From IMG/VR virus record IMGVR_UViG_3300047548_000808: a stretch of 64,000 nt of DNA, one strand, 5' to 3'. This stretch comes from an uncultured virus (IMG/VR IMGVR_UViG_3300047548_000808) (lineage: Duplodnaviria > Heunggongvirae > Uroviricota > Caudoviricetes). Positions 465 to 58,604 of the stretch are shown here, piece by piece (within the stretch, counting starts at the first letter, position 1; every line of letters starts with the position of its first letter). The notes beneath the pieces were generated by a model, which had not been told where the DNA came from, did not search any database, and worked only from the letters and a program-made list of their open reading frames with translations. The position numbers were made by a program, and so were the translations under genes.

Positions 465-1439
465 TTATTTCAGAATTAGTTTCTTATACTTACGGGCACC
501 TAGCCCACGATCGTCTTCGTACACTGCAGTCATATCTGCGTGCTTATGTCCAAGCAGAGTCTGGGTGTCTAATCCCTGCTTTTGATACATGCGAGCTGAT
601 AAAGACCGAATTTCATGTAGACTAGGACGCTCACCAGGAAGAAAGTCTTCTTCATCAGTTACAGCCTTCAAGCACTCCATAAAACGTATACTTAAGGAAG
701 ACAACTCAAGAGCATCGCCGTTAGCTTTACGTAGAATGTGATCTCCAAGAATACCGTACTTTTTACTTCGTTCAATAACGTCCCCGAGCGTAAGGTTTAA
801 AGCATCCAACCTTAGGTTTAATGGCAAAGCAATCCGTGCTCCGTACCCTTTACCCGCTTGTTTTTGTTGTTCTATATACAAGTATCCGTCTTTTACATCT
901 GAGTATTTCATTTTAGCCAAGTCTGCTCTACGTTGCCCTGTTATTACTCCTAGTAATAGCATTATATGAACCCAGCGTTGAGCGTGTTCTAGTTTAGCAT
1001 AAAAATACATCTTCTTCCAGTTCAGATAGCTCAAACGCTTTCTCTGTACACTAACTCTAAAGTTCTTTATATGCAGAGCCGGGTTAGTTTCAACGTAGTT
1101 ATTAGCTATAGCCTCCTGATATACTTGACGCAGCTCAGCAAGAATTCGTTGCGCAGTGGATGGATGAGTTGTTCTAATATCTTTTAGTGCTGCAGCAATT
1201 TCAAATGGTTTTAATTTATCTAGCGCTACAATTCCCCACAGACATCGTATATGCTTAAATATAGCTCTTCTATTACGTATAGTTTGCAGTTTATACTGAG
1301 TTTGTTCAAGAACTATGTTTTCGTATTGATCCATCCAGGAGTCTATTGTTATGATTTTGGATTTCTTTGAAGTCAAGTAGCCTAGACTAGTTCCGTTACT
1401 AATAAGTTTTAATAGAGCTTTGAGTTGTTTCTTTTTCAT
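465..1439 (-). CDS. Tyrosine recombinase/integrase, lambda Int-like core; N-terminal arm-binding domain apparently short or absent
   Basis: Catalytic motifs TGQRRADL (R), SLHEIRSL (HxxR), LLGHK, and Tyr in TAVYEDDRG. Confidence 0.92.
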   Translation of the reverse strand: MKKKQLKALLKLISNGTSLGYLTSKKSKIITIDSWMDQYENIVLEQTQYKLQTIRNRRAIFKHIRCLWGIVALDKLKPFEIAAALKDIRTTHPSTAQRILAELRQVYQEAIANNYVETNPALHIKNFRVSVQRKRLSYLNWKKMYFYAKLEHAQRWVHIMLLLGVITGQRRADLAKMKYSDVKDGYLYIEQQKQAGKGYGARIALPLNLRLDALNLTLGDVIERSKKYGILGDHILRKANGDALELSSLSIRFMECLKAVTDEEDFLPGERPSLHEIRSLSARMYQKQGLDTQTLLGHKHADMTAVYEDDRGLGARKYKKLILK

Positions 1440-3910: not shown

Positions 3911-3942
3911 AAAAGCCGGGTAGCTATAGCTACCCGGCTTTT
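3911..3942 (+). terminator. Rho-independent terminator; perfect 32-bp palindrome
   Basis: aaaagccgggtagcta|tagctacccggctttt directly after the stop codon. Confidence 0.85.
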
Positions 3943-5611: not shown

Positions 5612-5645
5612 AAAAGGGGGTTGAGCCTAGGCTCAACCCCCTTTT
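5612..5645. terminator. Bidirectional terminator; perfect 34-bp palindrome
   Basis: aaaagggggttgagcct|aggctcaaccccctttt between convergent genes. Confidence 0.85.
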
Positions 5646-17539: not shown

Positions 17540-18535
17540 CTACCTATAGTTTTCCATTAGCTGCCGTACTGCTTCTTGGTTTTCCTGAACGAATTTAGAA
17601 AGTTCTCTGTTACTTCGGATAAACTGAGCTTGGGCGCCGGAGGCTTTGCCGATTTCTTGTCCTTCCTTTGGAGATAGTTTTGATTTTGGATGGTTTCGTA
17701 CTTCTAGCGTAGCAAAGGCTATTCCTGCGTTTTTAATATCAACTTGATCTTCCGTGAGATTATCATTGAAAGGTTCTTTAATATCGTGCAGCTTTTTATA
17801 TTTTGTGGCAGTCATTCCCAGGACACCTTCGTTGATTCCTCGCTGTACGTGCATAGGAAGAAGTTTCTTTAGACCACAGGCTTCCACAAGACGATGATTA
17901 AATTCTATATTATCTGCGCGGGCTTGCGTTCCTTTTGCGCGATTTTCGTTCTTCTCTACCTTCTTGGTTACTTCCTCAGTATATCCATTCAGTACGGAAA
18001 CGAAGGTATTAGTAATTTCTTCGCTTAGGGACTCATTCAGGAAGGAGGCGTATTGAACAATCCAGTTCTGGCAAACGTAGGTTCCCTGAACAGTTTTGTT
18101 AGCACCTCTTGTAGAACCACCTTTTACTATTTTAATTACCATATCTCGATCTGAGATAGTATACAGGTTGACCGATATGCCGGGGCGCATATCGGTAGAA
18201 CTAGATAGGTTGACCGATATGCCGGGGCGCACAGTACTTTCCTGACCAAATCCACAACTAATTCCATGCTTAAGAAGACGCTTGCGTGTAGCAACTGCAG
18301 AACGCTTAATTCCATGTTCGTCTTTTGTACGAATCCACTGTCCCGGTTCCCTAGTTTTAAAATAGGTTTCGGGTTTCTTTCCCTTACGTAGAGCTTCACG
18401 TTTAATTGATTTCTCGCAAGCCTTATACACGTCAGTAATCGAGAAGAGCCACGGGAAATCTGGGTGTCGGCTAATGAGTTTACCGAACACGTAGAGTTCA
18501 CCAGAATCAACAACAATGCTAGGAGTCTTGGACAT
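17540..18535 (-). CDS. KilA-N domain protein with the family-conserved C-terminal domain (family member 1)
   Basis: FSITDVYKAC...QWIRTK...KGG...QGTYVCQNWIVQYASFL; C-terminal GINEGVLGMTATKYKK...EPFNDNL. Confidence 0.8.
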   Translation of the reverse strand: MSKTPSIVVDSGELYVFGKLISRHPDFPWLFSITDVYKACEKSIKREALRKGKKPETYFKTREPGQWIRTKDEHGIKRSAVATRKRLLKHGISCGFGQESTVRPGISVNLSSSTDMRPGISVNLYTISDRDMVIKIVKGGSTRGANKTVQGTYVCQNWIVQYASFLNESLSEEITNTFVSVLNGYTEEVTKKVEKNENRAKGTQARADNIEFNHRLVEACGLKKLLPMHVQRGINEGVLGMTATKYKKLHDIKEPFNDNLTEDQVDIKNAGIAFATLEVRNHPKSKLSPKEGQEIGKASGAQAQFIRSNRELSKFVQENQEAVRQLMENYR

Positions 18536-18574: not shown

Positions 18575-19351
18575 TTAAATGGCGTTTAGAAGAACTCTAG
18601 TTTCTTGATCCAGAGGAGGAAGATCGCGTGGAATACTGGCGAGGTCTTGGGTTCGGTAGAATTTGAATCCTTTGTGATGGTTTACTTTTCCTTGAAGTTG
18701 CTGGTAGATTGCCCCAGAATTGAATTTCATGGAAGAGCGCGAATTAATGTCGTTTGGCCCTTGGAACACGACAAGGTTTGTTTCTGAAAGGCCGTAGATA
18801 TAGCCTTTGAAATTAGAGTTTTTTGGGCCAGTTAGCTTAGAAAGAACTTCAGCTATGTGGGGACGTTTTTTAGCAAAGAAAGGATGAAGGGGGGCCGCGT
18901 TTTGCATCTCCGTTCCGTTTGCATGTTTCTGGGGAACGCGTTTTGCATCTCCGTTCCGTTTGCATGTTTCTGGGGAACGCTTTTTGCCTGTGTTGGATTG
19001 AGAGTTTTTAATACGGGCTTCTGCGGAATGAGTTCTACCTTTCAGGGCTTCTGAAAGCTTGTTTCTAGTTTCTTGGGTGGGAGAAAACCCTACGCACCCT
19101 TCTCCACCAAGAGTAAGGTTAGCTAGCTTATGGGTTTTGGAAAGGGAGGCGATTAGTTCTTTTTCTAGCTGGAAAGCTTCATCTTCTGTTGGGAACGTTT
19201 GTATTATTTCGTGGTAGAAGCCATGTTTCTTGACTATATTATTCCAGAACTTAGAACGTCGGTAAGTAATGGTTGCGCGATTTTTGGTTCCCTTTCCAAC
19301 GTAGAAGGGTTCTTTCGTATCGGCTTTGTAGTGGACGTATACGTAGAACAT
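18575..19351 (-). CDS. GIY-YIG-like homing endonuclease with NUMOD3 motifs
   Basis: FYVYVH...FYVGKG...R, E..LI, NLTLGGEG, ETRNKLSEALKGRTHSAEARIK. Confidence 0.85.
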   Translation of the reverse strand: MFYVYVHYKADTKEPFYVGKGTKNRATITYRRSKFWNNIVKKHGFYHEIIQTFPTEDEAFQLEKELIASLSKTHKLANLTLGGEGCVGFSPTQETRNKLSEALKGRTHSAEARIKNSQSNTGKKRSPETCKRNGDAKRVPQKHANGTEMQNAAPLHPFFAKKRPHIAEVLSKLTGPKNSNFKGYIYGLSETNLVVFQGPNDINSRSSMKFNSGAIYQQLQGKVNHHKGFKFYRTQDLASIPRDLPPLDQETRVLLNAI

Positions 19352-29364: not shown

Positions 29365-29398
29365 AAAGGGGTTTGCATGTTAACATGCAAACCCCTTT
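29365..29398 (+). terminator. Terminator; perfect 34-bp palindrome
   Basis: aaaggggtttgcatgtt|aacatgcaaaccccttt. Confidence 0.8.
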
Positions 29399-32781: not shown

Positions 32782-33624
32782 ATGTCTAAAGTAAAAATGA
32801 TTCAAGTATATAACCAAGAACTCTACGTGTTTGGCAAGTTGATTAGCCGACACCCAGAAATGCCTTGGCTATTCAGTATCACGGATGTGTATAAGGCTTG
32901 TGAAAAGCCTATCAAGGGTGAAGCTAAGAAATATGGGAAAGATCCTGAGGCAGTATTCACGGCAAAACGCCCTGGAGAATGGATGAAGAGAAACGTTACT
33001 GAATCTCGTATTGATTCAGCAGCCAGTAAGTTGCGTAAACGGATCAGTAAATACGGTGTTGATTCTTTATCAAACAGAGACTTATGCATTAAAACACTAA
33101 AAGGACGTAGAGAAGATAAACTACAAGGAACATACGTAATAAAAGAACTATTTCAGGGATACATTGACTTTCTTCAGATTCCTGAGTTGTCTTCAGAATA
33201 CCATAAACTCTTTCCTACTTCTAGCGAATCTATCGTCAGGACAATCAAACAACATACTAAATCTAGAGCTGAACTTGAGTTCTCAAAGTACCTTAGTGCA
33301 GCAGCTAAAGTACATAAGTGTGAATTGATTACTCAGAAAACAGAACTCGATAAATACAGAGTTGATTTTATTTTCTACTCAAAACGAAGACAGGCAGCAT
33401 GGTTAATTGAATTCGATGAAGCTCATCACAAGTATCAGACTGAAGAGGATTCAGTTAGGTGGTCTGAGATCAGAGAACGCTACAGTAAGTTTACAAATAA
33501 ACCTAACAATGGTTTCTATTTCGTTAGGGTGTCCGAAGGACAACATGAAGAATTTCTAATCAACTTCCTTACATACCTGAACACAGGTAATTTTAATAAA
33601 CTGAACTTCATCCACGTAAACTGA
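32782..33624 (+). CDS. KilA-N domain fused to a Vsr/PD-(D/E)xK-like endonuclease domain (family member 2)
   Basis: KilA-N N-terminus as in the paralogs; YRVDF...LIEFDEAHH...D..R...FVRV. Confidence 0.75.
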   Translation: MSKVKMIQVYNQELYVFGKLISRHPEMPWLFSITDVYKACEKPIKGEAKKYGKDPEAVFTAKRPGEWMKRNVTESRIDSAASKLRKRISKYGVDSLSNRDLCIKTLKGRREDKLQGTYVIKELFQGYIDFLQIPELSSEYHKLFPTSSESIVRTIKQHTKSRAELEFSKYLSAAAKVHKCELITQKTELDKYRVDFIFYSKRRQAAWLIEFDEAHHKYQTEEDSVRWSEIRERYSKFTNKPNNGFYFVRVSEGQHEEFLINFLTYLNTGNFNKLNFIHVN

Positions 33625-33634
33625 GGAACTAGAA

Positions 33635-34054
33635 ATGAACAACGAATACGAATTCTACGCTGAAGACGAAGAAGAGAGTTTTGAGTTTTATCCAGTGAAA
33701 TCTATTCAGAATAGGTTACATGCTACATGCAAGAAAAAAGAATTAGATTCTAAATACGTAGTATCAGGAATCAACGAAGGTGTTTTGGGAATGACTGCCA
33801 CAAAGTACAAAAAGACTTTTGGAATCAAGGAACCTTTCAACGATAACCTATCTAAAGATCAAGTTGATATTAAAAATGCAGGAATTTCGCTGGCTACATA
33901 TACTATTCGTAATCATCCAAAGCCAAAACTTTCTAGTAAAGAAGGAATTGAAATAGGTAAGGATTCTAGCCTAAGGGCTAAGATTATATTCACCGATCCT
34001 GAAGTCATCAAGTATCTAGACTCTGCAGTGAGTAGACTAGAGGCGTTATCGTAA
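33635..34054 (+). CDS. Stand-alone C-terminal domain of the KilA-N family (member 3)
   Basis: GINEGVLGMTATKYKK...EPFNDNLSKDQVDIKNAGI. Confidence 0.8.
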   Translation: MNNEYEFYAEDEEESFEFYPVKSIQNRLHATCKKKELDSKYVVSGINEGVLGMTATKYKKTFGIKEPFNDNLSKDQVDIKNAGISLATYTIRNHPKPKLSSKEGIEIGKDSSLRAKIIFTDPEVIKYLDSAVSRLEALS

Positions 34055-37881: not shown

Positions 37882-39012
37882 ATGTCCAAGCAAATTCAAG
37901 TCAAGTCCGTTGGTGGTTATCCCATTGTTGCTTCCAATACTGGCGTCAGTAAAGTCTACTCAGTCAGCAACAAAACCGTGGCTAATATCCTGCACAAAGT
38001 TGGCTATGCCAAGAAGGATTTGATCGCTCATGTTATGCCTAAGGATTGGTATAGTCCTGCAGATATTCGTGCCTTGACTGATATTGGATATGCTGAAGAG
38101 GATATCAGTATTATCATGCATGAGTGCAAGTCTGTTGCTAAGAAGGTTTCTGAATTCTTTTCACGTAGTATGGAAGAAGGTTCTGCCGAACAACGCCTTG
38201 CTGACACATCAGACTACTGGAATAAGTTTGCTGGTAAGTTTGGTAAGGAGTTTATGAACATCCGTGCAGTAAAACACGATGGACAAATTCTGTTTCTGGT
38301 CGATGACATTGCCAAGATTTATGGTGGTAGCTATGCATTGAATCCGCGTAGGTTTGTTCAAGAGCTGGAGGGTAAGCGTACAAGCTCTTGTACGCTTAAG
38401 AAACTTACCTATGCTCAAATCCTTAGCGCATCTCCTAATGCAGTTTCTGACGCACGAAGTTTTCGTCAAGGTAAACACTTTCTTGAAGAAGAAGCTATGC
38501 TGTTTATTCTTCAGCAATCCAAGTCTCCTGCTGCAGTTCAGTATCGCCTACACCTGATAGATGTGCTGAAGGGCCGCGCCAAGAATATGCTGGAACACGA
38601 AGAGGAACAGATCGAGCAGCGCGCCAAGGGTACAAAAGAGCGTGAAAATAATATTGATCTGAACAAGCGATTTACTGAGTCGTGTGCTCGCAAGAAGTTG
38701 GTTACGCGAATTATGCAAGGAGAAATTAATCGTTCCGTTCTTGGAATGACGAAGGCAGAATACATGACCAAAAATAGTATTCCTGAGCCGTTCAATGATA
38801 ATGCCTCTGTCCACGTAGTCAACACCAAGAACATTGCGCTAAGTATTTCTATCGGAGATCTTGACGCCCACCCAGAATCCAAGATTGCAAATAAGGAAGG
38901 CAAAGCTATTTGTTTTGCTGCAGGCTCTATAGCTCGCGTGATGATGACTTCCAAATCCGCTCGTGCTCAGATTGATGCTATCGCACGTAAAGAACTTGCA
39001 CTGAACAACTAA
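37882..39012 (+). CDS. Bro-N-like domain protein carrying the same C-terminal domain as the KilA-N family (member 4)
   Basis: IRAVKHDGQILFLVDDIAKIYG...FLEEEAMLFILQQSKSPAA; RAKGT...INRSVLGMTKAEY...EPFNDN. Confidence 0.75.
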   Translation: MSKQIQVKSVGGYPIVASNTGVSKVYSVSNKTVANILHKVGYAKKDLIAHVMPKDWYSPADIRALTDIGYAEEDISIIMHECKSVAKKVSEFFSRSMEEGSAEQRLADTSDYWNKFAGKFGKEFMNIRAVKHDGQILFLVDDIAKIYGGSYALNPRRFVQELEGKRTSSCTLKKLTYAQILSASPNAVSDARSFRQGKHFLEEEAMLFILQQSKSPAAVQYRLHLIDVLKGRAKNMLEHEEEQIEQRAKGTKERENNIDLNKRFTESCARKKLVTRIMQGEINRSVLGMTKAEYMTKNSIPEPFNDNASVHVVNTKNIALSISIGDLDAHPESKIANKEGKAICFAAGSIARVMMTSKSARAQIDAIARKELALNN

Positions 39013-54373: not shown

Positions 54374-55000
54374 ATGGAATTAGATGCAGTTTATTTCCCA
54401 GCTACGTTGAATGAACAACTAGGATTTTTCTATGTATTCGAGTGTGAGAAAGCTCTAAAGGAAGGTGCAGCAAAACAACTTAATTCAAGAGGACTTCCAA
54501 ATTTATATAGCTGTAGGTCTGCGGGCAAAACTCTTTATTTTGTAAAACATCCAGAGAAGGAAGTTCCAGTTGTATTCTTCACGCTTGGAAAGAACAGGTC
54601 AGGTTCTCTAAAAACTGATATTGTACATAATACGTATATAATGAAGAACCCAGAACTTGAGCGGGGAGAAATTTCAAAGTATCATGGGTTCAACAATCTG
54701 ATGATACAGATAATTCTCGATTATCTTGTACCAAAGTTTGGGGTTGTATCAACTGATAGGTCGCAGACGTACTCAGGCAAACGAGTATGGGAACAACTAC
54801 TGGAGGAAGTGTTCCATACTCATGGAAATTACTTTGTATATCTATGGGATTTTTCTAGTCCAGAAGCGACCAAATTAACTCAGCTAAAAAGCTTCAGAAT
54901 ATTTAAATCTATGGAAGATAAAATATACGGAGACACTGAGGACTTTCGCAAGATCTTGTTGCTTATCAGTACCAAACGTCTGAAGAACTACCAGACTTGA
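54374..55000 (+). CDS. Divergent GNAT-fold-like protein, subfamily B (closest to 50771)
   Basis: AVYFP, GLPNL, KHPEKE.P, YHGFNNL, STDRSQTYSGKRVWEQL. Confidence 0.55.
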   Translation: MELDAVYFPATLNEQLGFFYVFECEKALKEGAAKQLNSRGLPNLYSCRSAGKTLYFVKHPEKEVPVVFFTLGKNRSGSLKTDIVHNTYIMKNPELERGEISKYHGFNNLMIQIILDYLVPKFGVVSTDRSQTYSGKRVWEQLLEEVFHTHGNYFVYLWDFSSPEATKLTQLKSFRIFKSMEDKIYGDTEDFRKILLLISTKRLKNYQT

Positions 55001-55077
55001 CAGCAGGTTAGACCTGTGCTATACTAGAGGGGCGAGCATATGCTCGCCCCTGTTACAGCTTACCTGAAGGAAATACC

Positions 55078-55668
55078 ATGTCTAAAGCTCTACGTGTAGT
55101 TAACGGAGAACTATATATTTATGGAAATCTTATCTCACGTAACTCAGAACGGCCTTGGCTTTTTAGTATCACAGACGTACATAAGGCTTGCTCATCTATA
55201 ATTAAAAAAGACGCCGTAGAAAAAGGCAAGGATCCTGAAGTATTGTTCAAGAGCAAGCAGCCAAACGCTTGGCTTAAAAACTATGTAAAAGAAGATACAT
55301 TTGCGTGGACTTCTAAATACGTTCGTCGTCGTGTTGCTAAGCACGGAATAAACTGTGGTTTTGGAACGTCAGCCAAATTTGATCCACGGACCGATCCGAT
55401 AAATGCCGCATCACTAATAGCTACATGTGACCTTACACCACAAGAGCTATGTATTCATGTAGTAAAAGGAGGTTCTACCCGAGGTAACTCAAAAACAACT
55501 CAGGGGACTTTTGTATGTCAGGACTTCATCGTAGGGTACGCTAGTTTTCTAAGTGTTATTATAGAGGTAGAAATTATTAGTACATTTATATCCGTACTAA
55601 ATGGATATTCAAAAGAAGTAACTAAGCAAGTTAAAAAGAACGAATCAAGAGCTAGGCCAATGCGCTAA
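55078..55668 (+). CDS. KilA-N domain protein lacking the C-terminal domain (family member 5)
   Basis: Aligns to the paralogs up to KKNESRA, then stops. Confidence 0.75.
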   Translation: MSKALRVVNGELYIYGNLISRNSERPWLFSITDVHKACSSIIKKDAVEKGKDPEVLFKSKQPNAWLKNYVKEDTFAWTSKYVRRRVAKHGINCGFGTSAKFDPRTDPINAASLIATCDLTPQELCIHVVKGGSTRGNSKTTQGTFVCQDFIVGYASFLSVIIEVEIISTFISVLNGYSKEVTKQVKKNESRARPMR

Positions 55669-55759
55669 TAATCGGATCGGTAAGTAATAGCAAGAATAAT
55701 CGGATCGGTCTGACCGATCCGATTATAGTCACCTTAGTAATCTAAAAGGAAATAAACTC

Positions 55760-56656
55760 ATGTCTAAGACTCCAATCATTGTTGTTGATTCTGGCGAACT
55801 GTATGTTTTCGGAAATCTCATTTCTCGACACCCAGAAACTCCGTGGTTGTTCTCTATAACTGATATGTATAAAGCTTGTGAGAAAGCCATTAAGAAAGAA
55901 GCTTTTAGGAAGAATCTAAAGCCAGAAGCTCATTTTCTAAATAAGCGACCAAATCAATGGTTACGTACTAAAGATAACTATAGCATTGCAAAATCTGCAG
56001 CCTCTACCCGTAAGCGCCTTACTAGGTACGGAATTAGCTGTGGTTTTGCTGCGGGTACCGATAATCAGCCACGCGCATCGGTCCAGTCCAAAACTGGATC
56101 AGATAGAGATATGGTGATTAAGGTAGTAAAAGGTGGTTCTACAAAAGGTGCTAACAAGGTCGTTCAAGGAACCTACGTCTGCCAGAATTGGATTGTTCAA
56201 TACGCTGCTTTCCTGAATGAGTCGTTGAGTGAAGAAATTACTAATACATTCGTTTCCGTTCTAAACGGGTACAAGGAAGAAGTTACTAATAAGGTAGAAA
56301 AGAACGAAAATCGTGCAAAAGGAACTCAGACTCGTGCAGATAATATTCAACTGAACCATCGTCTAGTTGAGGCGTGTGGCCTGAAACGTATTATCCCAAT
56401 GAAGGTACAGCAGGGTGTTAACGAAGGTGTTCTTGGTATGACGGCAACCAAATATAAGAAGTTGCATTCTATCAAAGAACCATTCAACGATAACTTGACT
56501 GAAGATCAAGTTGATATGAAAAACATTGGAATTTCCTTGGCAACTATGCGTATCCGTAATCATGTTAAAGAAACCCTTACACACAAAGAAGGCACTCATA
56601 TCGGCCTAACTTCTGGACAACGTGCACGCAAGCTAGCAGAAGAATCTAAGGACTAA
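55760..56656 (+). CDS. KilA-N plus C-terminal domain protein (member 6)
   Basis: Same motifs as 17540-18535. Confidence 0.8.
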   Translation: MSKTPIIVVDSGELYVFGNLISRHPETPWLFSITDMYKACEKAIKKEAFRKNLKPEAHFLNKRPNQWLRTKDNYSIAKSAASTRKRLTRYGISCGFAAGTDNQPRASVQSKTGSDRDMVIKVVKGGSTKGANKVVQGTYVCQNWIVQYAAFLNESLSEEITNTFVSVLNGYKEEVTNKVEKNENRAKGTQTRADNIQLNHRLVEACGLKRIIPMKVQQGVNEGVLGMTATKYKKLHSIKEPFNDNLTEDQVDMKNIGISLATMRIRNHVKETLTHKEGTHIGLTSGQRARKLAEESKD

Positions 56657-56739
56657 TATCAATAAAAACCGCTCATGCGGTTTTCCCTACTTGCCTAAGA
56701 CCAAGGGCACCTCTGAACTACCAACCAAAAGGAAATAAA

Positions 56740-57624
56740 ATGTCCAAGACTCCGATCATCGTTGTTGATTCTGGTGAACTATATCTGCTGGGTAAACTCA
56801 TCAGCCGACATACAGAACTTCCGTGGCTCTTCTCTATTACGGATGTGTATAAAGCCTGCGAAAAATCAATTAAACGTGAAGCTGTACGTAAGGGAAAGAA
56901 ACCCGAAACCTACTTTAAAACTCGTGCTCCTGGGCAATGGCTTCGTACCAAGGATGAAGATGGAATTAAACGTTCTGCATCTGCTACTCGTAAGCGACTT
57001 ATTAAGTATGGCATTAATTGTGGATTTGGATCAAATAGTGATGTGCACATGTGCACATCACTAAAGTTTCAAGAATTGACTGCTAATCAATTAGTAATTA
57101 AAACCGTGAAGGGAAATTTCAAGGACGGGTCTACCCAAGGAACATATGTATGCCAGAACTGGATTGTACAATATGCTTCCTTCCTGAATGAAGCTCTAAG
57201 CGAAGAAATCACAACTACATTCACTTCCGTGCTGAATGGACACGTAGAAGAAGTAACCAAGAAGGTAGAAAAGAACGAACGCATCGCAAAAGGTACTCAA
57301 GCTAGACAAGATAACAAAGATCTAAATAGTGAACTGGTTGAAGCCTGTGGACGTAAACACCTATTACCAATGAAGGTCCAGCAAGGTGTTAATGAAGGTG
57401 TCCTTGGAATGTCTGCGACTAAATACAAAAAGCTGCACGATATCAAAGAACCTTTCAACGATAATCTAACTCAAGAACAAATCTATATAAAGAACATTGG
57501 TATCAACATTGCAACCTATCGTATTCATATGCACAAGGCACCAAGAATCGGGCAGAAGGAAGGAAACATGATCGGCATTACCTCTGGACAACGTGCCCTT
57601 AAACTAGCCGCAGAATACGAATAA
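56740..57624 (+). CDS. KilA-N plus C-terminal domain protein (member 7)
   Basis: Same motifs; leader identical to that of member 1. Confidence 0.8.
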   Translation: MSKTPIIVVDSGELYLLGKLISRHTELPWLFSITDVYKACEKSIKREAVRKGKKPETYFKTRAPGQWLRTKDEDGIKRSASATRKRLIKYGINCGFGSNSDVHMCTSLKFQELTANQLVIKTVKGNFKDGSTQGTYVCQNWIVQYASFLNEALSEEITTTFTSVLNGHVEEVTKKVEKNERIAKGTQARQDNKDLNSELVEACGRKHLLPMKVQQGVNEGVLGMSATKYKKLHDIKEPFNDNLTQEQIYIKNIGINIATYRIHMHKAPRIGQKEGNMIGITSGQRALKLAAEYE

Positions 57625-57716
57625 TAAGTTAAACCGCATGAGCGATTTTCTATGCTTTTATTTACTCTGGAGGGTAGTCTTCTCTCCAGAGTTACAACTT
57701 TCTTGAGAAAAATACC

Positions 57717-58604
57717 ATGTCTAAGACTCCAATCATTGTTGTTGATTCTGGCGAACTGTATGTTTTCGGAAATCTCATTTCTCGACATCCAGATTTTCCA
57801 TGGCTTTTCTCAATTACTGATATTTACAAGGCATGTGAGAAACCCATCAGGAAAGAAGCTTTGCGCAAAGGAAAGAATCCTGATACTTTCTTTAGGACTC
57901 GTGCACCTAGTCAATGGTTACGCACAAAGGACGAGCATACAATCCAAAAATCTGCGAAATCAATTCGTAAGCGTCTGACAAAATATGGAATTAACTGTGG
58001 ATTTGGTGTAGTAATGTCATCGTCCACTGTGCGCCGGCGCACAGTGGACGAGCTTACTGATACTCAGATTTGCATGTTCAAAGTAGAAGGAGGTAGCGCA
58101 AAAGCTCGCGTACATGGAACCTACGTCTGCCAAACCTGGATTGTTCAGTATGCAGCATTCCTAAACGAATCACTTAGCGAAGAAATCACTAATATATTCG
58201 TCTCAGTTCTCAACGGTTACGTAGAAGATGTAACCAAGAAGGTAGAAAAGAACGAGCGTATTGCTAAGGGTACACAAACCCGTCGAGAAAACAAACAGTT
58301 GAACGACGAACTAGTCGAAGCCTGTGGTTTCAAGAAACTGCTACCTATGAAGGTGCAGCAGGGTGTTAATGAAGGTGTACTAGGAATGACTGCAACTAAG
58401 TACAAGAAACTACATTCTATCAAAGAACCTTTCAACGATAACTTGACAGAAGACCAAGTATCAATCAAAAATATGGGAATTATTCTTGCGACAATGCGGG
58501 TACGAAATCATCCGAAACCTGAGCTAAGTCACAAGGAAGGAAGTTACATCGGCCTAACTTCTGGACAGCGCGCACGCAAGCTAGCAGAAGAGTCTAAGGA
58601 CTAA
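57717..58604 (+). CDS. KilA-N plus C-terminal domain protein (member 8)
   Basis: Same motifs; 5' and 3' ends nearly identical to member 6. Confidence 0.8.
   Translation: MSKTPIIVVDSGELYVFGNLISRHPDFPWLFSITDIYKACEKPIRKEALRKGKNPDTFFRTRAPSQWLRTKDEHTIQKSAKSIRKRLTKYGINCGFGVVMSSSTVRRRTVDELTDTQICMFKVEGGSAKARVHGTYVCQTWIVQYAAFLNESLSEEITNIFVSVLNGYVEDVTKKVEKNERIAKGTQTRRENKQLNDELVEACGFKKLLPMKVQQGVNEGVLGMTATKYKKLHSIKEPFNDNLTEDQVSIKNMGIILATMRVRNHPKPELSHKEGSYIGLTSGQRARKLAEESKD

Follow-up and report, generated by a model that had tools for sequence, protein, structure and literature searches.

A palindrome within the KilA-N codons of a phage gene family covaries with predicted DNA-binding residues of the encoded proteins

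The 64,000-nucleotide stretch analysed here (the window) is the first half of a linear record of 126,025 bases from an uncultured virus of the Caudoviricetes (IMG/VR IMGVR_UViG_3300047548_000808; estimated completeness 48%), and it harbours a family of KilA-N genes and their relatives (members 1 to 8) in which a palindromic unit of 26 base pairs (bp) lies within the codons of the KilA-N domain itself. The bases of this unit covary with residues of the protein in which it is embedded, the inner bases with a predicted recognition helix and the outer bases with a predicted wing. From these sequence comparisons we consider it likely that the palindrome of each gene is the binding site of the encoded protein, which would bind as a dimer, held together by a C-terminal domain shared within the family, with the helix reading the inner and the wing the outer bases.

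The assignment to KilA-N is based on several comparisons. The Pfam profile (PF04383) gave nine matches in the 126-kilobase (kb) contig, two of them at or over the cut-off, atlas features placed the family proteins at 0.95 to KilA-N clusters, and the conserved motifs of the family line up in an alignment with those of short KilA-N proteins. In the numbering of member 8, residues 62-70 map to profile positions of about 32-40, which we take to form part of the recognition helix, and these residues are accordingly predicted to start it. The segment before a conserved Gly-Thr-Tyr would be the wing, by analogy with the fungal protein PCG2 as described in parts of PMC4862756. An earlier reading of the same DNA (the sequence-only reading) had described the self-complementary segment as a linker, and the paralogs as highly similar except there. 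The segment indeed differs among paralogs, but so do helix residues 62-70 and wing residues 121-133, and instead of joining two domains it is inserted within KilA-N, with the helix on one side and the wing on the other.

Symmetry of the 26-bp unit

Eighteen anchored units were collected from the contig and twelve metagenome loci, of which two hybrids were excluded, leaving 16 for the counts. The midpoint of this nine-codon unit falls between the first and second bases of codon 5, so that wobble positions pair with wobble positions; 56 of 64 such pairs are complementary, against 16.7 in the null (standard deviation 3.5, maximum 30). Counted by position, pairing occurs in 14-16 of the 16 units at positions 1-10, and in 10, 10 and 6 at positions 11, 12 and 13. 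Similar symmetry emerges from a larger protein set (102 sequences, nine without a definable linker, 86 distinct linkers): fully symmetric linkers number 35 of 86, compared with 0.06 in shuffles and none among 22,328 windows elsewhere, and 58 of 86 possess at least four of the five pairs (3.3 in shuffles). The observation made by the sequence-only reading is confirmed.

As a further null, each whole gene was recoded synonymously 100 times. The arms of members 1, 4, 7 and 8 and of two paralogs outside the window were reached in none of the 100 recodings, which bears out four palindromes noticed previously, i.e. the perfect ones of members 8 and 7, the hairpin with 10-bp arms within a 42-bp repeat of member 1 (second copy at 18213), and the hairpin of member 4 (Table 1). 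Members 2, 5 and 6 and a second nuclease fusion were unremarkable by this measure. Member 2 was correctly described as devoid of the insert. The two 6-bp hairpins described for member 6 are present, but its best arm does not exceed the null (22 of 100 recodings); the first is a lopsided copy of the family site and the second may be due to chance. The hybrid site of member 5 had been overlooked.

In a more distant clade (locus L011), palindromes of 26-28 bp are centred between codons, and the same applies to the Bro-N gene. Because these genes use another codon phase, it is the DNA symmetry and not the peptide that is kept. Symmetry is therefore maintained at the DNA level, as had been proposed, and as in an intragenic operator a two-fold symmetric DNA site is retained independently of the codons. 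Short canonical KilA-N proteins of about 20% identity (P0159, P0169 and P0176) likewise possess symmetric nine-codon units between helix and wing, that of P0159 being identical to the unit of P0127. When distant proteins were back-translated in a general search for palindromes, the arms of 10-16 that emerged lay at unrelated positions, and we regard this search as uninformative.

Covariation between protein and site

Covariation was studied in the 47 of 67 non-nuclease sequences that have a near-symmetric anchored unit. A side-by-side listing showed that the outer six bases vary with the type of wing, and the inner ones with the motif around residues 62-70. Codon 3 of the unit shares most mutual information with residues 63 and 66, codon 4 with residues 66, 70 and 82, and codons 1-2 with the wing residues 121, 123, 128 and 133. 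Within a half-site, bases 7-11 track residues 63, 66 and 70 and bases 1-6 track the wing. At residue 63, Ala goes with GT (9 of 9), Glu with AT (3 of 3), Gln with CC (6 of 7) and Arg with GC (23 of 28), Arg being accompanied by GG in all four sequences with Asp66. At residue 70, Trp goes with AG (15 of 15), Arg with AC (11 of 11), Asn with GT (4 of 6) and Lys with GC (3 of 4). When 15 sequences were added to give 62, Arg70 was found with Thr (AC) in 16 of 16, and an aromatic residue at 70 with either Arg (13) or Ser (10), both compatible with AG, i.e. in 23 of 23; both Ser codons available as DNA are AGT.

Helix and wing types occur in numerous pairings, with twenty helix signatures over five wing types and seven signatures on more than one wing type, and the palindrome follows both. 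In leave-one-out prediction of the inner four bases, the nine columns of helix residues 62-70 were correct for 36.9 of 47 sequences, the nearer segment 71-96 (26 columns between helix and unit) for 30.1 of 47 and the rest of the protein for 13.0 of 46; the outer bases were predicted by the wing in 32.8 of 39 and by the helix in 11.2. Permutation within clusters of three other regions gave p <= 0.0015 in 27 of 27 tests, and independent pairs on a FastTree phylogeny of the backbone gave 9 of 9 (p 0.004), 6 of 6 (p 0.03) and 4-0-1 (p 0.125). The order along the gene is residue 63, residue 70, outer-left, inner and outer-right bases, and wing. Whether residue 70 is Arg, Lys or Phe, bases 7-8 go with residue 63, and it is bases 10-11 that go with residue 70. 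Simple linkage does not produce such covariation, because the pattern is interleaved along the gene and would be broken by single crossovers.

The same rules apply to some of the sequences outside the set. Among 15 held-out lopsided sequences, seven match both inner positions on one arm (2.4 when permuted, p 0.0002), the obedient arm being sometimes the left and sometimes the right one. Six proteins found later, about 35-43% identical, obey the residue-70 rule by eye, with Tyr counted as aromatic post hoc. Where the unit is duplicated in tandem, the wing-proximal copy fits the code, also by eye, in member 1, P0019, P0024, P0060 and P0127, and has no clear fit in P0025 and P0027.

A further line of evidence comes from genes in which a nuclease-like domain replaces the usual C-terminus, namely member 2, a paralog at 76.8 kb and 14 homologues. 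The motif of the fused domain is consistent with a DUF559-like PD-(D/E)xK assignment, the C-terminus of member 2 has atlas features of 0.90 and TM values of 0.6-0.68 to DUF559, PvuRts1I-N and Mrr clusters, and one source labels P0117 as a very-short-patch-repair endonuclease. Full symmetry is found in 1 of 16 fusions compared with 34 of 83 other sequences (p 0.009), and at least four of five pairs in 3 of 16 compared with 56 of 83 (p 0.0005); when only the five main wing types and the deletions are counted, the figures are 1 of 11 versus 32 of 67, and 3 of 11 versus 51 of 67. The lesions are varied (deletions, a two-codon duplication, hybrid arms), and two fusion homologues found later also have a broken palindrome. 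The N-terminal domains of the fusions show no decay (their best identities have a median of 0.89, n=14, versus 0.90, n=85, in the others). In the sole intact fusion this domain is 100% identical to that of an unfused gene, as is expected of a recent fusion. The cassette sits behind many different KilA-N domains. Loss of the palindrome would be expected if the nuclease is guided to it by the KilA-N domain, since a nuclease so guided would cut its own gene. Together with the covariation, this loss supports the in-gene operator that the sequence-only reading had listed among its options.

Several observations weigh against binding of the palindrome by its own protein. The 47 sequences were selected for symmetry, most of their bases are inferred from amino acids (DNA is at hand for 16 units only), and of two more sequences left out through their wing pattern one fits and one does not. 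Recombination within the family makes the independent pairs only approximate, and long branches were flagged in the tree. Eight of the 15 held-out sequences fail to match both inner positions; P0053, P0038 and the second unit of P0027 are exceptions to the inner code, and Arg63 with Gln66 (GT or GC) and Lys63 (GT or CT) are ambiguous. The wing does not match the outer class in P0021, P0029 and P0130, nor in the left arm of P0006/P0016. The wing lies 10-20 codons from the palindrome, and the link between the two is weak evidence when taken alone because they are so near. Members 5 and 6 persist despite their lopsided sites, the Pfam DUF559 matches remain below cut-off (E 0.049 in member 2, 0.0016 in the homologue P0108), and a sequence search of the PDB found no solved relative.

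Competing explanations

The palindrome could instead be read by another factor, such as a recombinase or another host or phage protein, with helix, palindrome and wing covarying merely as blocks that are inherited or swapped together. The family is highly mosaic (its C-terminal domain predicts the inner bases in 1.8 of 46), segment 71-96 is also a fairly good predictor, as given above, and this large phage itself encodes a tyrosine recombinase/integrase (465-1439, minus strand). Single crossovers, however, cannot give the interleaved order in which bases 7-8 go with residue 63 and bases 10-11 with residue 70; the residue-70 rule holds in clades of 35-45% identity, and the loss of the palindrome in nuclease fusions is left without explanation. 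We regard this explanation as unlikely.

Somewhat less probable still is a site-targeted diversification mechanism, i.e. template switching triggered by hairpins or a dedicated enzyme that rewrites the loop, in which case the symmetry would be a footprint and the loop peptide the product. Tandem duplications and hybrids of the unit are in keeping with it, and the central pairs are perfect more often than by chance (6 of 16 at the centre two). Likewise, of 20 terminator-like hairpins found in the contig, six are perfect palindromes devoid of a loop (427-464, 3911-3942, 5612-5645, 29365-29398 and, in the genome, at 76703 and 107433), more than a free four-base loop would give, which suggests that palindromes are being perfected in this phage. 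By contrast, identical units recur across samples and on different backbones, the changes track residues 100 bp away, and the length is fixed at 26 bp; moreover, the lopsided nine-codon unit of member 6 is conserved rather than perfected, being found again in three homologues (P0004, P0008 and P0109). The exact 32 bases of the member 8 palindrome occur in a contig from a run of another study (X7), and the member 7 palindrome is covered without differences in run X5, although this comparison relies on assembled contigs, which drop rare variants, and two of the four runs gave no cover. Signs of a retroelement or shufflon were sought as well: no second copy of a full unit was found elsewhere in the contig, and no reverse transcriptase among the larger open reading frames scanned, which are a part of those in the contig, itself about 48% of the genome. 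Diversification, one of the options listed by the sequence-only reading, is not supported.

Very improbable is coevolution at the protein level, whereby helix and wing residues contact those of the loop and the DNA is symmetric only as a consequence. Covariation was measured throughout on protein sequences, but the wobble positions pair far beyond the null, an aromatic residue 70 accepts Arg as well as Ser, and either arm may be the fitting one; in addition, the position of the unit shifts by many residues, some members have lost it by deletion, and in the related clade it takes another phase. An equally small probability attaches to a mobile coding palindrome of the Rickettsia RPE or REP kind that inserts in frame, another option raised before. 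The unit is in frame, self-complementary and missing from some paralogs, but it always occupies one position in one gene family, full sites were found only in their own genes across the 126-kb contig and 12 homologous loci, and three pattern scans of 2.9 million viral contigs returned 1, 0 and 0 matches. Least probable of all is a conserved mRNA hairpin for pausing, processing or stability: a stem of 10-16 bp would fold in the transcript, but the 32 mismatches show no RNA bias, as A-C (7) is about as frequent as G-U (6; other 19), many units are loop-free, and the sequence tracks DNA-binding residues.

Genomic setting, possible role and known systems

The coordinates of the genes and sites in the window are given in Table 1. 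The window phage has a terminase with 31-35% identity to those of 220-270-kb phages of Erwinia, Yersinia and Achromobacter and is therefore regarded as an uncultured large phage; sequencing runs containing it derive from freshwater, river and wastewater metagenomes. Besides its KilA-N matches, the contig has one Bro-N-like gene (member 4, with one close homologue) and two free-standing copies of the shared C-terminal domain. Independent support for the observation comes from the end of the contig, which the sequence-only reading could not see, where a paralog possesses a hairpin with 13-bp arms at the corresponding place (125884-125911). Members 5 to 8 form a tandem array of four genes (55078-58604), preceded by a strong sigma-70-like match. 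Searches with this array, as DNA and as protein, matched nothing in 50,697 annotated phages or in IMG/VR; one weak partial match in bacterial genomes was not used. The C-terminal domain may resemble DinD. It had no match in an NCBIfam profile search, and its match to PDC-S13 (E 0.003-0.006) is too weak to give it a name.

Table 1. Genes of the KilA-N family and their palindromic sites in the window.
Feature	Position	Strand	Remarks
Member 1, gene	17540..18535	-	331 amino acids
Member 1, two tandem units	18171..18238		42-bp period; wing-proximal copy 18171-18196 fits the code, 18213-18238 is a hybrid relic
Member 2, gene	32782..33624	+	KilA-N fused to DUF559-like (PD-(D/E)xK) domain; palindrome deleted
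Member 3, gene	33635..34054	+	detached, stand-alone C-terminal domain behind the nuclease fusion
Member 4, gene	37882..39012	+	Bro-N-like domain with the same C-terminal domain
Member 4, 26-bp hairpin	38373..38398		arm 12, loop 2; other codon phase
Promoter match ahead of the four-gene array	54997..55025	+	sigma-70-like, 11/12; no family site overlapping
Member 5, gene	55078..55668	+	truncated, 196 amino acids; without C-terminal domain
Member 5, hybrid site	55390..55415		left arm suits own residue 63 and wing; right arm of another class
Member 5, three further copies of left half-site	55667..55726		two make an inside-out hairpin, 55696-55726
Member 6, gene	55760..56656	+	298 amino acids
Member 6, lopsided site	56057..56082		outer 6 bp paired; right arm obeys the code, left inner part does not
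Member 7, gene	56740..57624	+	294 amino acids
Member 7, perfect 28-bp palindrome	57036..57063		arm 14, loop 0; core 57037-57062
Member 8, gene	57717..58604	+	KilA-N and shared C-terminal domain, 295 amino acids
Member 8, codons 62-70	57900..57926	+	predicted start of recognition helix; residues 63, 66 and 70 track the inner palindrome
Member 8, perfect 32-bp palindrome	58020..58051		arm 16, loop 0; 26-bp family core 58023-58048
Member 8, codons 121-133	58077..58115	+	predicted wing, by analogy with KilA-N/APSES in parts of PMC4862756; tracks the outer 6 bp

Some peculiarities of single genes and loci were also encountered. An inside-out hairpin of half-sites of the member 5 type recurs upstream of a homologue in locus L003 (about 850-900), and in the window a 15-bp duplication of one arm coincides with the early stop of member 5. 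Directly upstream of member 1 adjoins a free-standing homing endonuclease (PHROG 314, NUMOD3; 18575-19351, minus strand). Another phage protein (15918-16685, minus strand) ends in a PEP-CTERM sorting motif (Pfam E 3.6e-7), which hints at a Gram-negative host with an exosortase. A topoisomerase II large subunit of 1152 amino acids in locus L014 (2733-6191) has an HNH-like insertion near residues 205-350, probably an intein, and a terminase in locus L016 (10125-13847, 1240 amino acids) likewise contains a long insertion.

A regulon was considered and rejected: exact 11-bp half-sites are confined to the genes themselves and, for member 5, to the region just downstream (its left half-site has four copies, all inside 55390-55723), while half-sites of the family pattern number 44 in the contig compared with 29-52 in simulated genomes. 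A free intergenic palindrome, perfect over 28 bp and matching one half-site class, was observed in the record of a 194-kb phage (L018, 600-627) in which no family or KilA-N gene was found; it may be a decoy or due to chance.

Because the site lies about 300 bp inside the gene, far from the promoter, binding by the encoded protein would restrain that protein by feedback, through roadblock repression or titration. Self-limitation of this kind, combined with escape from paralogs and relatives, appears to be the likeliest role, with about an even chance among the roles considered; we prefer it because no regulon is found in half a genome and because specificities multiply. New combinations of helix, wing and site would spread by escaping the paralogs and co-infecting relatives, in the manner of immunity groups. 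When one arm changes, template switching probably assists in carrying the change over to its partner, and a unit duplicated in tandem probably leaves scope for specificity to switch.

Sites that overlap coding sequence and constrain its codons are well known from the iterons of the lambda origin in gene O, parS in parB, lac O2 and the PurR box in purB, and the O proteins and origins of lambdoid phages vary in cognate pairs. Unlike these, the site described here lies within the codons of the binding domain itself, between helix and wing, with two modules recombined, and half of the genome contains no copies at promoters or origins. In homing endonucleases, the nuclease-bearing allele lacks the site carried by the nuclease-free allele. 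The nuclease fusions are similarly devoid of the site, with the cassette behind many KilA-N domains; they differ in that no intron or intein is involved and in that specificity would come from the swapped KilA-N domain.

The passages on BstA and its element aba (Owen et al. 2021, PMC8585504) describe a phage KilA-N(-like) protein with a short, partly coding DNA element in its own locus, and variant proteins with cognate elements, which here are recognized by covariation only. In those passages aba is an element of 63 bp that covers the start codon, with direct repeats at its ends, and a direct binding code is not described; the main text does not use the word palindrome. The 26-bp palindrome, by contrast, lies about 300 bp into the gene, inside the binding-domain codons and in about nine paralogs of one large phage. 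No BstA model occurred among the PADLOC matches of eight proteins at E 0.1. A bolder proposal for the role is a self-mark analogous to BstA-aba (PMC8585504). Fungal APSES/SBF proteins share the KilA-N fold and a wing that reads DNA sequence. In the parts of PMC4862756 on the PCG2-MCB complex, specificity comes from the wing and not the helix, whereas here both track the 13-bp half-site; as of 2016, that source regards little as known of the targets of viral KilA-N proteins. The passages of PMC9881135 considered here concern neighbours of inversions only. Intragenic sites and cognate pairs of protein and element are thus of known kinds. In the literature searched, at the level of listings and abstracts, we met no description of a site that forms part of the coding sequence of the binding domain itself and follows a two-module code.

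More tentatively, and with rather low probability, the family may represent a selfish system of self/non-self recognition among co-infecting large phages, in which each gene encodes a reader and, within the codons of that reader, its own password from two swappable modules (helix with inner bases, wing with outer bases). Genomes without the password would be blocked, and the nuclease fusions, themselves password-less, would cut rivals that retain it and spread like homing endonucleases. If so, recombination could not part the protein from its password, and the family would be a natural, readable protein-DNA recognition code for KilA-N domains.

Where a protein and its site are written in a single stretch of DNA, both could change specificity at the same time. 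Viral KilA-N domains abound, and their targets would be readable from the gene if each gene encodes its site as proposed. The tables for helix and wing amount to predictions, residue by base, that are open to gel shift, and the fusions point to a programmable nuclease architecture of KilA-N reader and DUF559-like cutter, the targets of which would be predictable.

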